The translations under genes were made by a program, and so were the position numbers. Below, in pieces: positions 3,429-9,423 of a DNA stretch of 64,000 nt (positions within the stretch are counted from its first letter, which is position 1; each line of letters begins with the position of its first letter). Origin of the DNA: Alphaproteobacteria bacterium (GTDB lineage Bacteria; Pseudomonadota; Alphaproteobacteria; GCA-2731375); the NCBI GenBank assembly GCA_965225945.1, contig CBDDBZ010000029.1, positions 103,998 through 167,997 on the forward strand, written 5' to 3'. The notes beneath the pieces are model-generated. The model ran no database searches, had not been told where the DNA came from, and was given only the letters and a program-made list of their open reading frames with translations.

Positions 3429-4744
3429 GGCGCCCGACCGGGCCGGTCCCGTTCGAGCGTCTTGAGAATCTCCACGAAGCGGTAGCAGTCCTCAAACCGG
3501 TTGTAGAGCGGCGTCGGCGCGACCCGGATCACATCGGGTTCGCGCCAATCGCCGGTAACGCCGGCCGCCTCGAGACGTTTGAACATGCTTTTGCCGTAAC
3601 CGCTTTCGCCCTTCAGCCTAACGGAGAGCTGGCAACCCCGCCGGTACGAATCACGTGGTGAGATCATCTCGACCGTTTCGCCCAACTCCTCGGTCAATAG
3701 CCAATCCAGATATCCCGTCAGGTCCATCGATTTCTTGCGCAGGGGCGCCATGTGCCCGGCATCGGCGAACACCTCAAGGGACGCGCGAATGGCCGCCAGT
3801 GACAGGATCGGCGGGTTGGACAGCTGCCAGCCCTCGGCCCCGGCGATGGGTTTGAAATGCGGTCCCATCTCGAATCGGGTCGCCTTGTCGTGTCCCCACC
3901 AACCGCAGAAACGGGACAGGTCCGCATCGTCGCCGTGACGCGCATGAACGAAGCAGCCGGCTACGGCTCCCGGTCCGGCATTCAGATATTTGTAGGTGCA
4001 CCAGACGGCGAAATCCGCACCCCAATCGTGCAGGCGCAACGGAATATTGCCGGCGGCATGGGCGAGGTCGAAGCCGACCACGCAACCATTTTTGTGGCCA
4101 AGGCGGGTGATCTCGGCTATGTCGAAAACCTGGCCGGTGTAGTACTGCACGCCCGGCACCATGATGAGGGCGATCGACTCGCCTTCCCTTTCGATTATGT
4201 CGCAAACGTCCTCGTCGCGGATCAGCTCTTCACCGTCGCGGGGCGTGAGCAGCCGCATTGACCGCGCCGGGTCGTAGCCATGGAACTTGATCTGAGATTC
4301 CACGGCGTAGTGATCGGAGGGGAAGGCGTGGCTCTCGATCAGGATTCCGTGGCGCGCTCGGGTCGGCCGATAAAAGCTCACCATCATCAGATGCAGGTTG
4401 GCGGTCAGCGAATTCATGGTGACGACTTCCCCCTCCTCGCCGCCCACCAGTTCGGCCATGGTCGGAGTGAGAAATTCATGGTAGGGCATCCAAGGGAACT
4501 CTCCCTCGAAATGGCCCTTGACGCCTACGCGCCGCCAGCTGTCCAGCTCAGCGGCAACATAGTCCGCAGCGGATCTGGGCTGGAGCCCGAGAGAATTGCC
4601 GCAGAGATAGATCTCATCATCGCCATCGGCCGTCTTCGGGATATGGAACCGGTTGCGGAAACCAGCGAGCGTGTCCCGCCGGTCCATTTGCCTGGCGAAG
4701 TCCAGGCCCTTCCTATAAGGGGGCGCCTCGACTGCGCCGTTCAT
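3425..4744 (-). CDS. kynU: Kynureninase
   Basis: YLCGNSLGLQP, DLAHAAGN, DFAVWCTYKYLNAGPG (PLP lysine), GWWGH. Confidence 0.95.
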   Translation of the reverse strand: MNGAVEAPPYRKGLDFARQMDRRDTLAGFRNRFHIPKTADGDDEIYLCGNSLGLQPRSAADYVAAELDSWRRVGVKGHFEGEFPWMPYHEFLTPTMAELVGGEEGEVVTMNSLTANLHLMMVSFYRPTRARHGILIESHAFPSDHYAVESQIKFHGYDPARSMRLLTPRDGEELIRDEDVCDIIEREGESIALIMVPGVQYYTGQVFDIAEITRLGHKNGCVVGFDLAHAAGNIPLRLHDWGADFAVWCTYKYLNAGPGAVAGCFVHARHGDDADLSRFCGWWGHDKATRFEMGPHFKPIAGAEGWQLSNPPILSLAAIRASLEVFADAGHMAPLRKKSMDLTGYLDWLLTEELGETVEMISPRDSYRRGCQLSVRLKGESGYGKSMFKRLEAAGVTGDWREPDVIRVAPTPLYNRFEDCYRFVEILKTLERDRPGRAP

Positions 4745-4875
4745 GTCAGCGCATAGATCACCGGCCGGCAAGGGGCCGCGTCGGTGTGGAAAGCGGGCAT
4801 TTGGAGATTCAGCAGATACAGGCCGTCGCGGATTTCATCGTCGACGAAGATCATTTCGGTGATGGTCTTGTCTCC
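4741..4875 (-). pseudogene. C-terminal stub of a cyclase-family (kynurenine formamidase-like) gene
   Basis: KTITEMIFVDDEIRDGLYLLNLQMPAFHTDAAPCRPVIY resembles the cyclase-family C-terminus; its stop overlaps the kynU start (ATGA); the rest of the gene is absent. Confidence 0.7.
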
Positions 4876-5007
4876 ATCGCAATAACCGCCCAGCAAGATC
4901 GTCCGTCCAGTTCTTAACATGATTGGAACCGCCAGATACACCCGCTACCGCTCCCACCGGCGCGATCAAGCCCAGTTTTCGTATCATGTACGACATCCGA
5001 AGCGGGT

Positions 5008-5646
5008 CATCTGTGGACGGCGCCTTCTTGGCAAGGGTTTTCTCGGTGTCGATGCAGGGCCGGTCGGGTGCCCTCATCTGTACGGCCTGTTTGTGCGGCA
5101 CGTCTGTTCTGGCCGCCGGCGGTCGCCGGGCGCGAATTCCTATGCGGCCTGCGCGACCGGATCCCGGTAGCGCTCTCCACGTGACATGATCACCCAGGCG
5201 ATCCGCGCGATCCGCTTCGCCAGTGCCACAGCGGCCAGCTCGAGCGGCCGATTGGCGACCAGCTTCGCCAACCAAGGCCGTCGCCTGAAGCCGGTCCGGA
5301 TCCCCTGACGGATCACCGCCATGGCTCCGGTGACCAGCAGCCACCGAAGGTAGCGGTTGCCCTGTTTGGAGATCGGCCCGAGCCGGTGCTTGCCGCCGGT
5401 CGAGTCCTCCTTCGCCACCAGGCACGGCGGCAAGTGTTCGAAGAACGACATCACCCGGCTGCGGCGCAGCTGCTTGCGAACAACGACCTCGCCGGCCTCG
5501 TCGACGCCATGAACCTGGAAGACGTTCTTCGCTATATCCAATCCGATCGTGCCAACCTTCATCTGGACGGCTCCTCTTTCAAGTGGTCCGAGACGACTAC
5601 CACTTTGGCACCTAGATGCCGGGTGCGGCGCCGTCCACAGCATCAC
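5008..5646 (-). mobile_element. Internally deleted IS1111-type (IS110 family) element
   Basis: 14-bp sub-terminal inverted repeats CTGTGGACGGCGCC (5011-5024) / GGCGCCGTCCACAG (5627-5640); transposase remnant inside. Confidence 0.8.
5140..5562 (-). pseudogene. IS110-family transposase with a large in-frame internal deletion
   Basis: N-terminal GLDIAKNVFQVHGVD fused at about 5412 to the C-terminal STGGKHRLGPISKQGNRYLR...AVALAKRIARIAW. Confidence 0.85.
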
Positions 5647-5898
5647 TTCCCACCCGTTGGAAGGTGCTCATATTAGGGTGAGTCTCGGGGGTACATCAGA
5701 TGTCGATTCGGCGAAACCCGATATTCGGCCACCGATCTCGGGAATTAGGGGAGACGCCCCGTCGGGGAGGGTCGATTCGGTGATTCGTAGACCCTATGTC
5801 CGTTGAGGTTTCGACGCCGGGACCAGGTGTCCGCCTCAGCATGTAGTTTCGAGGGTTGCACGCGTTTGCGTGCCTATCCTCATACATGGGAGACGGAC

Positions 5899-7014
5899 AT
5901 GACGGACGATATCACCTTTGTTGGCTTGGATGTTTCGAAGGAGACGATTTCGGTCGGGATCGCGCCGGGTGATCCGCGAGAGGCGGTTCATTATTTCGGC
6001 ACCATCGTGTACCGACCGACGGCGCTCTATTCGCTCTGCAAGAAGCTGTCGCGGGACGGCGCGCGTCTTCACTTCTGCTATGAGGCTGGCCCGTTCGGCT
6101 ATTCCCTGCATCGCCGGCTTTTGGACTGGGGCCACACCTGCGATGTGGTGGCGCCCTCGCTGATCCCCAAGCGGCCCGGTGACCGGGTCAAGACGGACCG
6201 GCGGGACGCGCTGAGCCTGGCTTCGTTGTTGCGTGCCGGACAGTTGACCGCGGTCTGGGTGCCCGACGCGAGCCACGAGGCGGTTCGCGCGCTGGTGCGC
6301 CTGCGCCACCTGGCGGCGGGCGACGTGCGCCGGGCCAAGCAGCAGATCCTGGGCTTCTGCCTGATGCATGATCGGGTGTATCGGGCGGGTACGACGCATT
6401 GGACGAAGACCCACCGGAACTGGCTGGTGGATCAGAAGTTCGAGCACGGCGCTCTGGCGCTGACCTATTCGGAATTGCTTGGCCGTCTCGAACGGGCGGA
6501 AGAGATGCTGGCGCGAGCGCGCCTGGAGTTGCGGGAACACCTTGGCGGCTGGGCCTTGTATCCGGTCATGGACGCCCTTCAGGCGTTACGCGGCTTCGAT
6601 TGGGAGAATGCCGCCATGGTCGCGGCGGAGATCGGCGACTTCCAGCGCTTCCCCACGGCGGGCCATCTGATGGCCTACGTCGGCTTGGTGCCGTCGGAAT
6701 ATTCCAGCGGTGATCGACGCAAGCGGGGCAAGATCACCAAGTCGGGCAACGCCATGGTTCGCCGTGTCCTGGTGGAGGCAGCCTGGACCTATCGTCACCC
6801 GGCGCGCCAGTCGAGCCCGATCCGCGCCCGTTCAGCCCATCTGCCGGAGCCGATCCGCGACAAGGCCTGGCAGGCGCAGATACGATTGTGTCGTCGCATG
6901 CGCGATCTGCGCGGGCGCGGCAAACACCAGAACACCGTGCTGACCGCGGTGGCCCGGGAGCTGGCGGGGCACGTCTGGGCCATCGCCCGCATGGTGCCCC
7001 CGCCGATGGCATAA
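5899..7014 (+). CDS. IS110-family DEDD recombinase/transposase
   Basis: VGLDVSK, CYEAGP, VKTDRRDA, GLVPSEYSSG (catalytic Ser region), GKITKSGN, TAVARELAG. Confidence 0.95.
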   Translation: MTDDITFVGLDVSKETISVGIAPGDPREAVHYFGTIVYRPTALYSLCKKLSRDGARLHFCYEAGPFGYSLHRRLLDWGHTCDVVAPSLIPKRPGDRVKTDRRDALSLASLLRAGQLTAVWVPDASHEAVRALVRLRHLAAGDVRRAKQQILGFCLMHDRVYRAGTTHWTKTHRNWLVDQKFEHGALALTYSELLGRLERAEEMLARARLELREHLGGWALYPVMDALQALRGFDWENAAMVAAEIGDFQRFPTAGHLMAYVGLVPSEYSSGDRRKRGKITKSGNAMVRRVLVEAAWTYRHPARQSSPIRARSAHLPEPIRDKAWQAQIRLCRRMRDLRGRGKHQNTVLTAVARELAGHVWAIARMVPPPMA

Positions 7015-7317
7015 ATCGCCGCGCGCCGAGCGGCGAATACCAACACGCCCGCTTGCGTGGGCAGCGGCGGTGGCGGCCACTTGGGGAACTCCCGTTCCTT
7101 GGCTATGGGCAGGATTGCATCCGATGCCCGTCTGTAGAGTCAGGACAGCCCCATCGGACATAGGGACATGCGGTAGTCGATCCGCGGATAAGAGCTTGAT
7201 GGACCGTCGATCAAAGCCGTCCCGCCGCTGCCTTCCAAAGCGGGCGTCAGATACCCAGCACCCGGTGACGAGCCGGGTGAAAGGCCGCGTTCGTGCTTGA
7301 CAGGGAGGACATAAGAG
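7015..7317 (+). ncRNA. Candidate bridge/seek-type guide RNA in the IS110 right end
   Basis: Successive hairpins flanked by segments matching the element-end junction (GACAT 7165-7169, ATAAGAG 7188-7194); inference only. Confidence 0.4.
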
Positions 7318-7406
7318 AGGAGAGGACATAAGAGCCAATAGTTTCCGTTTAGAGATCTCTAATGTTATGGATGCCGAGGCCATCGGCAAGACCTCTTCCC
7401 GATTTT

Positions 7407-7507
7407 AAAAAAAGGTCATTCTATTTTTTCGCCTCCGCTGGCGCTGGCGACACGAGCCACGAAGAGGCCCGCCGCAGCGACCGATAAAGTAGAATGACTC
7501 CTTTTCT
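7407..7507. repeat. REP-like spaced inverted repeat
   Basis: AAAAAGGTCATTCTATTTT ... AAAGTAGAATGACTCCTTTT; related copy at 35989-36057. Confidence 0.6.
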
Positions 7508-7571
7508 GAGTTCATCTCGCTCGCCCGCGGTCGCACTTGTTGCGTCTCATCGGCTTCGTTAGACTTCGTTT

Positions 7572-7630
7572 ATGTCCGAAAGCGCTCAGCGCAGGCTGGC
7601 TGCGATTGTCGCCGCCGACGTGGTCGACTT
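7572..7630 (+). pseudogene. N-terminal stub of a class III adenylate/guanylate cyclase
   Basis: MSESAQRRLAAIVAADVV matches the typical RRLAAIxxADVVGYS start, then the similarity stops. Confidence 0.6.
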
Positions 7631-7726
7631 CGGTTTCATTGCCACCGTTTGCCGAACCTGCCACCCATCGCCGCTCCCGCCCGATCATCCGAACGCCGGC
7701 GTAGAGCTCGTTGAAAGGTCAATCAT

Positions 7727-8149
7727 ATGAACAGCGCTATCCTCACCGGAAGTTGCCTTTGCGGCGCGGTCTCGTTCGAGTTCGAACTGCCGACGCTTTT
7801 CGCCGGACATTGCCACTGCACGATGTGTCGGCGCGCCCATGGTGCAGGCTTCGTGACCTGGGTTGGTGTCCGCGAAGATGGTTTTCGGATCACGGCGGGC
7901 GAGGAAGACGTCGTGCATTACCGAAGCTCGGGTCACACGACGCGAAGCTTCTGCGGACGCTGCGGCAGCTCCATGTTTTGCAATGGCGACAACCACGAAA
8001 ATGTCATCGATATCACCGTGGCCAACCTGCATGGTGACATCGACCGCGAAGTGAAAGCACACGTCTACTATGACTGCCGCGCCAGTTGGCTGACGATCAA
8101 TGACGACCTCAAGAAGCTGGGAGGCGACAGCGGCACGGAGCCGCTATAG
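7727..8149 (+). CDS. GFA/CENP-V family Zn-binding protein
   Basis: GSCLCG, HCHCTMCRR, RSFCGRCGS. Confidence 0.9.
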   Translation: MNSAILTGSCLCGAVSFEFELPTLFAGHCHCTMCRRAHGAGFVTWVGVREDGFRITAGEEDVVHYRSSGHTTRSFCGRCGSSMFCNGDNHENVIDITVANLHGDIDREVKAHVYYDCRASWLTINDDLKKLGGDSGTEPL

Positions 8150-8355
8150 AAAGCCGCGCGGGAAAGCACGACACGCGAGGTGGTGCCGCCCAGGGCGAGG
8201 CCGCCTCAGGCATCGGGGGGGAGACGACCGCCGCCGCCTCGACGGGGGGAAGGGCGAGGGCGGCGGCGGCCGGAGAGGACGGCCTCTCTCGGTCCAATCT
8301 GGGAGACCAAACGGGCGCCAAAGGGGCTGAAATGAGGCGATTTGGTGGCGCCGGC

Positions 8356-9423
8356 TCAAGCCGTCGCCGAGAGCGGTAAATGAACGGACTCGCCGCTCTG
8401 GAGCGAGTGCGCGACCGCGTCGGTGAATTCCATATAGGCGACCCCGGTGGCGAAATCGGTGTGGCTCACCGCTTCCAGGCCTCGCACGGCGTTGACGAAT
8501 TCCTCCTCGACCCGCCAGGCGCCGCGATTCTCCTCGGCGACCCTGACCGGGCGGAGGCCCTCCTCGCCCCGCTCGCCGGCGGCAAGCACCATCGCCTCGC
8601 CCTTGGCCTGCGACAGCAGGAGCGTGCCCATGGACCCGAAGATCCAGACCTCGGCGGCGGCGGGCGCGTGGCCGAGCACGGTGGAGACGTTGAAGCGCAT
8701 CTGCCCGCCCGCCGCCAACCGGCCGATGACGTCGACATGGTCGGGAATGGTCATCGCCACCCGCCGGCCGGTCGCGTCCCGGCGGTGCGCCACCACGGCG
8801 CGGCCCACGGCATGGACGCTGGCTGCCGGGCCGACCCAGCGCATCATCGCCTCGTACCAGATTCCCATGCTCATGGTGTTGTTGCCGGAGAGCTCGCGGT
8901 CGTGGCGCCAGTGAAGGGTTGAATCGGGGTCGGGAAAGCCGCCGCCGGCGGTGATCCGGGCATCCAGCGCGATCAGCTCGCCGATCTCGCCGGCGCCGAT
9001 CATCTGGGCGATGGTGGCATCGAAGGCCAGCGTGTGCGGCGCCGGCACGAGCTGCGCCACCAGCCTCGGGTGGCGGCGCGAGGCCGCCAGCATCGCCCGC
9101 GCCTCCACCGAATCGCGCGCCATTCGCGCCTCGCACAGGACATGCTTGCCGTGCTCCAGCGCGGCGATCGTCATGGCCGCGTGCATGTAGGGCCAGGTGC
9201 CGATACAGACGGCGTCGACCGACGCGTCCTCCAGCACCGCCATCCAATCCTCGGCGACGTTCGCGATGTCGAACTCCGCCGCCACGCGGGACGCCGAGCC
9301 GGTCGTGCGGTTGGAGACGGTGACGAGCTCGACCCCCGCTTGCTCCCGAAAGCCTGGAATATGCCGGGATCTGGTGTTGCCGCCGGCCCCGATCAGGCCG
9401 ACGCGGATGACCTCCGCGCTCAT
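8356..9423 (-). CDS. Gfo/Idh/MocA family oxidoreductase
   Basis: RVGLIGAG, GKHVLCEARMA; GGAGG RBS before ATG 9423. Confidence 0.88.
   Translation of the reverse strand: MSAEVIRVGLIGAGGNTRSRHIPGFREQAGVELVTVSNRTTGSASRVAAEFDIANVAEDWMAVLEDASVDAVCIGTWPYMHAAMTIAALEHGKHVLCEARMARDSVEARAMLAASRRHPRLVAQLVPAPHTLAFDATIAQMIGAGEIGELIALDARITAGGGFPDPDSTLHWRHDRELSGNNTMSMGIWYEAMMRWVGPAASVHAVGRAVVAHRRDATGRRVAMTIPDHVDVIGRLAAGGQMRFNVSTVLGHAPAAAEVWIFGSMGTLLLSQAKGEAMVLAAGERGEEGLRPVRVAEENRGAWRVEEEFVNAVRGLEAVSHTDFATGVAYMEFTDAVAHSLQSGESVHLPLSATA

Follow-up and report, generated by a model that had tools for sequence, protein, structure and literature searches.

Bridge RNAs have been predicted in the right end of 93.0% of IS1111 elements (Durrant et al., 2024, PMC11208160). 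The text of that paper describes the group as having a DEDD recombinase, subterminal inverted repeats of 7-17 bp, a short left end and a long right end, the latter containing an RNA with two core-including loops complementary to target and donor. For ISEc11, ISPa11 and ISKpn4, the seekRNA is described as lying in the non-coding region downstream of the gene (Siddiquee et al., 2024, PMC11187229). The same text reports a length of 330-350 aa for IS1111 transposases, gives GL-P----S(t)G as their motif, and places the top-strand match of the guide 5´ of the bottom-strand match, with the two overlapping at the insertion point. The bridge RNA of IS621, as described in the texts of PMC11208160 and PMC11208158, has two loops, target first and donor second, each arranged as guide, hairpin and guide; the two guides of a pair read opposite strands, with overlap at the 2-nt core.

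Within the stretch of DNA analyzed here (the window, 64,000 nt), positions 5791-7334 on the + strand are an IS110-family, IS1111-type insertion sequence, whose ends were established by comparing its junctions with those of copies in the same genome. Its 3´ non-coding end very likely encodes a bridge RNA (seekRNA) of ~200 nt, located at ~7045-7247 (+). Set against these published descriptions, the element shares with the IS1111 group the recombinase type, the subterminal repeats, the short left and long right ends and a predicted right-end RNA with two internal loops that complement target and donor, the core being included by the target guides and the 3´ donor guide. It shares with the seekRNA elements the position of the RNA downstream of the gene, the transposase motif and, in both loops of the window RNA, a top-strand complement located 5´ of the bottom-strand complement. 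As for ISPa11, whose target is described as lying in REP (PMC11187229), the target is repeated intergenic DNA. The order of the loops, their guide-hairpin-guide arrangement, the reading of opposite strands across a 2-nt core (less well supported for the 5´ donor guide) and the aligned catalytic residues are as in IS621. Because right-end bridge RNAs are predicted so widely in IS1111 elements by Durrant et al., the window element is a further member of a described kind, with a predicted IS1111-type bridge RNA.

There are also differences. Compared with the IS1111 group as presented in PMC11208160, the window lineage has a transposase of 371 aa, an AG core and, as target, a repeated intergenic element of its own genome; the lineage is not named in the text of that paper and may already be in its catalogue. 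The transposases of ISEc11, ISPa11 and ISKpn4 are given as 330-350 aa, compared to 371 aa here, and the active short seekRNAs as 82-96 nt with a long form of 154 nt, compared to ~200 nt of conserved structure and basal stem here. The text of PMC11187229 describes target matches only, whereas a donor loop is also evident in the window RNA. In IS621, the RNA is encoded upstream of the gene, the core is CT, and within either loop it is the 5´ side that pairs with the bottom strand and the 3´ side that pairs with the top strand (PMC11208160); here the RNA is downstream, the core is AG and the order of the strands is reversed. The parts of the element and its flanks are as follows.

5650-5790, no strand assigned: left flank, belonging to the repeated intergenic element in which the target is found, with ...TTCGTAG at its end and the AG core at 5789-5790
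5795-5801 (+): left-hand subterminal inverted repeat, TATGTCC, lying 4 nt in from the element's left end, the reverse complement of GGACATA
5899-7014 (+): transposase/recombinase of 371 aa, apparently intact, of the DEDD/Ser type, with PF01548 and PF02371
7297-7302 (+): TTGACA, facing outward, near the right end
7306-7334 (+): right end, with the tip AGGACATAAGAG present twice, at 7306-7317 and 7323-7334
7324-7330: right subterminal inverted repeat GGACATA, 7 bp, 4 nt inside the right end
7335-7365, no strand assigned: right flank of the target, starting CCAAT and conserved among insertion sites

The transposase scores 46.8 bits on PF01548 (N-terminal DEDD, RuvC-like domain; cut-off 29), 77.4 bits on PF02371 (C-terminal Tnp domain) and 235.7 bits on the NCBI family model NF033542, "IS110 family RNA-guided transposase" (cut-off 140). 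Likeness to the IS621 protein can be detected only for residues 3-144 and 227-296 (E 1.5e-12). The positions aligned to IS621 D11, E60, D102, D105 and S241, a list of catalytic residues taken from the text of PMC11208158, are conserved and correspond to the D of GLDVSK, the E of CYEAG, both D of KTDRRDA and the Ser of YSSG. GLVPSEYSSG, aligned with GLTPRRYESG of IS621, fits the IS1111 motif. The length of 371 aa falls outside the reported range, which is descriptive and not a defining trait; relatives of 360-371 aa have all other IS1111 features in common. The nearest named relatives, by protein comparison only, are the ISSfr2-like transposases of rhizobial plasmids (PLSDB label), with 52% identity over 99% of the protein.

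The ends of the element were defined by searching the window's own genome for further copies and then comparing the junctions side by side, with six left junctions (window, L002, L005, L007, L008 and L009) and four right junctions (window, L002, L003 and L004). The likeness among the left junctions of L002, L005, L007, L008 and L009 ends upstream of window 5770-5790. All left junctions read ...TAG and then ACCCTATGTCC, which sets the start of the element at 5791 and the AG core at 5789-5790, and all right junctions read ...GGACATAAGAG and then CCA. The core AG is found on both sides of the element at every junction. The AG core and the right tip GGACATAAGAG had been proposed in an earlier reading of this DNA (the original prediction) and are confirmed by the own-genome junctions. 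The left end, which it had drawn between AG and ATGTCG at ~5699/5700, was ~90 bp off, so the joined junction and the left-flank strand CTGATGT derived from it are not real. With 108 nt of non-coding DNA upstream of the gene (5791-5898) compared to 320 nt downstream (7015-7334), the left end is the short one. The 7-bp subterminal repeat of the window element is at the lower limit of the range described in PMC11208160; in relatives the repeats are 9-10 bp and occupy the same place.

The window copy is 1544 bp long, compared to 1530 bp for the standard copy at L002. The right tip 12-mer is doubled in the window copy because of a 14-nt insertion special to it, which is absent from L002, L003 and L004 in the right-junction comparison; DNA contigs of runs X1 and X2 also lack 14 nt at 7305. 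Since the period of the doubled tip (window 7303-7334) is 17 nt, it is not a clean tandem duplication. Two other copies in the genome (L004/L005 and L006/L009) appear to be interrupted, with halves ~1.4 kb apart; the halves of L004/L005 overlap by 16 nt at window 6240-6255.

All copies are inserted at one position of one repeated intergenic element. The unoccupied sites L013 and L014 read ...CTTAG followed directly by CCA(A/C) and carry a single AG, and there is no target duplication longer than the short core. The left-flank repeat has eight own-genome matches (75-100% identity), and the right flanks of L002, L003 and L004 start CCAG or CCAAG and have ...TTAG..TCTAATG in common. We noted that the target repeat is ~170 nt long, intergenic and built with internal repeats of GTCGATTCGG (5650-5790 and 7335-7365; loci L010-L015 and L017), and that the right flank resembles the beginning of another unit of it. 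The target repeat has no Rfam match. Directly to its left, positions 5140-5646 (-) hold what is left of another, distinct transposase of the IS110 family, a 168-aa frame that joins an N-terminal piece to a C-terminal piece and matches PF02371 only. We considered whether the flanking repeat is part of this neighboring remnant, and rejected it after a tblastn search at 15 own-genome loci gave no match to the remnant.

Minimum free energy (MFE) folds of the downstream region contain a long basal stem around several hairpins, including those at 7107-7129 and 7170-7185, and the guide matches described below fall in single-stranded stretches next to hairpins. The predicted RNA has the following parts.

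7045-7077 (+): 5´ strand of basal stem P1, pairing with 7216-7247; duplex of -62.1 kcal/mol
7082-7086 (+): 5´ strand of P2, pairing with 7149-7153 and closing the target arm; compensatory changes in 4/5 pairs
7090-7094 (+): 5´ strand of P3, pairing with 7141-7145 and closing the target arm; compensatory changes in 4/5 pairs
7095-7139 (+): target-binding loop, consisting of guide g1, hairpin P4 and guide g2
7095-7106 (+): target guide g1, 5´ side of the target loop
7107-7129 (+): target-loop hairpin P4, GGGCA...TGCCC, from the MFE folds
7130-7139 (+): target guide g2, 3´ side of the target loop
7141-7145 (+): 3´ strand of P3
7149-7153 (+): 3´ strand of P2
7155-7194 (+): donor-binding loop, consisting of guide d1, hairpin P5 and guide d2
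7155-7169 (+): donor guide d1, 5´ side of the donor loop
7170-7185 (+): donor-loop hairpin P5, GCGG...CCGC, nearly invariant in 56 distinct sequences
7186-7194 (+): donor guide d2, 3´ side of the donor loop
7216-7247 (+): 3´ strand of basal stem P1, which includes the "second hairpin" of the original prediction at 7225-7243

No Rfam 15 model matches window 5000-8000 at E values up to 1, meaning that no curated model fits and nothing more. An alternative helix, ACGGT/ACCGT, overlaps the outer stem of the donor arm.

The original prediction had drawn a different anatomy, with a donor loop spanning 7165-7194, interpreted for a left end at 5700, and a target loop formed by a local hairpin at 7225-7243, with the adjacent GCGTCAG pairing with the left flank. 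Every motif it named is present where it was said to be (GACAT at 7165-7169, GCGG at 7170-7173, CCGC at 7182-7185, ATAAGAG at 7188-7194, CCGCT at 7225-7229, AGCGG at 7239-7243, GCGTCAG at 7244-7250 and TTGACA at 7297-7302), and CCGCT and AGCGG are able to pair locally. With the left end at 5791, however, the strand on which the pairing was based is not next to the element, and the proposed pairing of GCGTCAG with it falls with the misplaced end. The supposed second loop at 7225-7250 is in the 3´ strand of the basal stem, where CCGCT pairs with 7059-7077 and AGCGG with 7045-7054, and this stem is retained in relatives with different sequence. The variable blocks that track the flanks are instead 7095-7106 and 7130-7139, in the actual target loop upstream. 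We therefore regard the earlier anatomy as extremely improbable. The donor hairpin at 7170-7185 was correctly recognized as the center of a guide-hairpin-guide loop, as was its 3´ guide ATAAGAG as a match to right end plus core. For the 5´ donor guide, GACAT does not hold as read against ATGTCG, but is part of a longer match, CGGACATAGGG at 7155-7165. The original prediction is partly supported, right in its main idea and wrong in half of its details.

The structure with basal stem and two arms was examined in relatives, collected by scanning one genome per species. This gave 80 loci from Alpha-, Beta- and Gammaproteobacteria and a few other phyla, with transposases 40-56% identical. Downstream regions had to reach 250 nt, and one was taken for each distinct 250-nt start; the 61 distinct regions so selected were searched with iterated nhmmer, and a homologous downstream region was found in 57 of them. 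In these, four variable blocks alternate with conserved blocks, exactly at the positions of the matches in the window. When 46 sequences were aligned with plain MAFFT and folded with RNAalifold, misalignment of hairpins between groups limited the result to 14 pairs, nine of them with compensatory changes. A covariance model (R1) was therefore built from homogeneous relatives with the structure drawn by hand, using as seed 20 Betaproteobacteria-type sequences with transposases <51% identical and leaving out the window and its closer relatives. R1 had 73 matches in all and matched the window over the full model length (7076-7212, 48 bits, E 4.5e-9).

Across 56 distinct rows, 93.8% of cells are paired, compared to 36-48% when partners are slid by 1-3 columns. 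Both sides changed in 19 of the 27 pairs of six helices, in an alignment fitted to the model structure. None of 500 shuffles reached the observed covariation, again with the alignment fitted to the structure, which favors the structure. At the target-loop hairpin P4, helices 3 and 4 have compensatory changes in 7/8 pairs; P5 has 99.5% of cells paired and one compensatory change (56 distinct sequences). The basal stem is outside R1 and was tested separately, taking the 46 nt before and after each match as a duplex at 54 loci. Cognate duplexes averaged -51.5 kcal/mol, compared to -28.3 kcal/mol for non-cognate combinations from diverged elements, and the cognate partner was the best among the diverged ones in 38/54; the covarying basal stem comprises 28 base pairs. 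The RNA structure is thus conserved and covarying. In L018-L026 the target-loop hairpin has an insertion of ~30 nt. At L053, L055 and L058, a second, partial RNA-like copy is found ~190 nt upstream of the full one (model match, 48 bits), suggesting that part of the RNA region was duplicated in tandem.

The same conservation bears on whether the region could instead encode a small protein. A GTG-start ORF of 76 aa is open at 7070-7300 (+), in high-GC DNA that is rich in such frames, with 44 ORFs of 50 aa or more, in all frames, overlapping 4000-9000. Conservation tracks base pairs and not codons, with indels of 1-2 nt and long hairpin insertions in relatives, and the frame almost certainly does not account for the region.

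We next consider the guides of the predicted bridge RNA, beginning with the target loop. TTGGCTA at 7099-7105 in g1 reverse-complements TAG followed by CCAA of the right flank and, being complementary to the top strand there, spans the insertion point. GTAG at 7134-7137 in g2 has the same sequence as the left-flank end plus the core, and g2 would therefore pair with the bottom strand; in the window copy this run has four Watson-Crick pairs, or five with a wobble, and it is longer against the left flank of L005. For relatives, the fit was measured as the longest Watson-Crick run anchored at the core, with both flanks known for 46 loci that represent 35 distinct target-loop regions. For the right flank, the run averaged 5.91 nt with the element's own flank and 3.33 nt in mismatched pairings (35 distinct RNAs), with g1 runs of at least six in 24/35 own pairings compared to 56/1178 mismatched ones. 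The corresponding averages for the left flank were 4.69 and 3.35 nt (35 distinct RNAs), with g2 runs of at least five in 20/35 own and 122/1182 mismatched pairings, a weaker signal than for g1. The observed sum for either flank was reached in none of 5000 permutations, which ignore relatedness. The fit of g1 was 9/9 in L039, L044 and L049. Guide matches are found at the same structural place in all groups, despite widely differing sequences. In L018-L026, g1 is CGGGTTT and the target is TAG plus CCCG, and the core would pair by U:A and a U:G wobble instead of CT.

On the 3´ side of the donor loop, ATAAGAG at 7188-7194 in d2 is identical to the right tip plus the core, which would make d2 pair with the bottom strand. 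About two 7-mer matches are expected by chance (estimated for 285 nt of region and a site of 62 nt, both strands counted), and the lone match of ATAAGAG in the window is not beyond chance; it becomes significant only when its position, homologous in relatives, is considered. The relatives' right ends were placed where the 7-mer immediately after the donor hairpin occurs again, and this 7-mer recurs at the right tip in 62/66 loci, where the chance of a given 7-mer in 380 nt is ~0.02. Three main variants of the 7-mer change jointly with the tip (ATAAGAG at 10 loci, ATCAGAG at 17 and ATATCAG at 37).

The 5´ side is different. In the window, CGGACATAGGG at 7155-7165 in d1 is the reverse complement of element positions 2-12, an exact match of 11 nt. 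Element position 1 is mismatched by d1 in the window, and pairing extends over the 10 nt after it. In relatives, pairing with the left end is confined to the final 3-5 nt of d1, and in no group does d1 pair with the A of the core. Given the short pairing and the unpaired A, d1 is less well supported than the other three guides. When the left end of relatives was sought as the reverse complement of d1, there were 2-5 mismatches in 10 at scattered distances, with the window excepted, and left ends were located through the subterminal repeats instead (at most one mismatch in nine at 53/61 loci). Covariation of the loops with ends and targets among homologs, on which the original prediction turned, is seen for g1, g2 and d2. 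One reading of the window copy is that d1 has lengthened in this lineage until it covers 11 nt at the left end and with them the entire subterminal repeat, so that the RNA rather than the protein would read the repeat, and that the 14-nt extra tip would be left over from an RNA-guided exchange in which a donor-like site took the place of the normal target. We consider this combination unlikely.

The complementarities could also be by-products of repeats, if the region were only end DNA recognized by protein, with subterminal repeats, recombinase sites and half of a junction promoter, and encoded no functional RNA. The GGACAT of the d1 match overlaps the subterminal inverted repeat, so that some self-complementarity is expected, and the production of the guide RNA is itself a prediction. 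The outward-facing TTGACA near the tip is conserved as well: TTGACA or TTGAAA is found at the same place in 22 of 32 distinct joined-end sequences of relatives (window copy excluded), and the joined ends of relatives would give TTGACA-17 nt-CATCAT. In the window element, the spacing to a -10-like hexamer is poor, with 18 nt to ACCCTA and 22 nt to TATGTC. A promoter scan of 5700-7450 found no sigma-70-like site, and two terminator-like sites found in a scan of the same interval are on the minus strand and within chance. Six helices with compensatory changes and a covarying basal stem speak against this reading. So do guide blocks that complement flanking host DNA, which is outside the element and differs between relatives. 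The NCBI family model is named for an RNA-guided transposase, and, in the experiments described in PMC11187229, the downstream region of other IS1111 members yields an RNA required for transposition. An end made of protein-recognized DNA only is, on this evidence, highly unlikely. The programmable IS110/IS1111 recombinase with a downstream guide RNA put forward in the original prediction is upheld by the protein domains, NF033542, the R1 match and the guide matches.

In one study, two metatranscriptome libraries yielded contigs that span 7047-7231 and 7072-7254 with 100% identity, coinciding with the predicted RNA. The RNA-library contigs leave 6304-6772 and 7255-7375 uncovered, from which nothing is concluded. 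As these contigs carry no end or strand information and DNA carry-over is possible, they give only a weak hint of guide-RNA expression. No circle junction, excision joint or empty site was seen in the contigs of four runs.

By analogy with the family, the RNA would be made, bound by the recombinase and direct recombination. In such a model, the long basal stem would carry two arms, the target-binding loop belonging to the first and the donor-binding loop to the second, with the hairpin at 7107-7129 separating the target guides and the hairpin at 7170-7185 separating the donor guides. In complex with the DEDD/Ser recombinase (5899-7014), this RNA would keep the excised circle's joined ends together with the target, ...TTCNTAG/CCAA... 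of the repeated intergenic element, and strand exchange would take place at the AG core.

The element leaves the known mechanism unchanged. It provides a well-resolved natural example of a predicted IS1111-type bridge RNA, with the ends, the core, the target repeat and all four guide segments mapped, and is accompanied by ~50 diverged relatives in which guides change with targets. Such sets are useful for working out the pairing rules of the less-studied IS1111 branch, namely the reversed guide order, the AG core and the short, imperfect 5´ donor guide, and also help in the choice of programmable recombinases.
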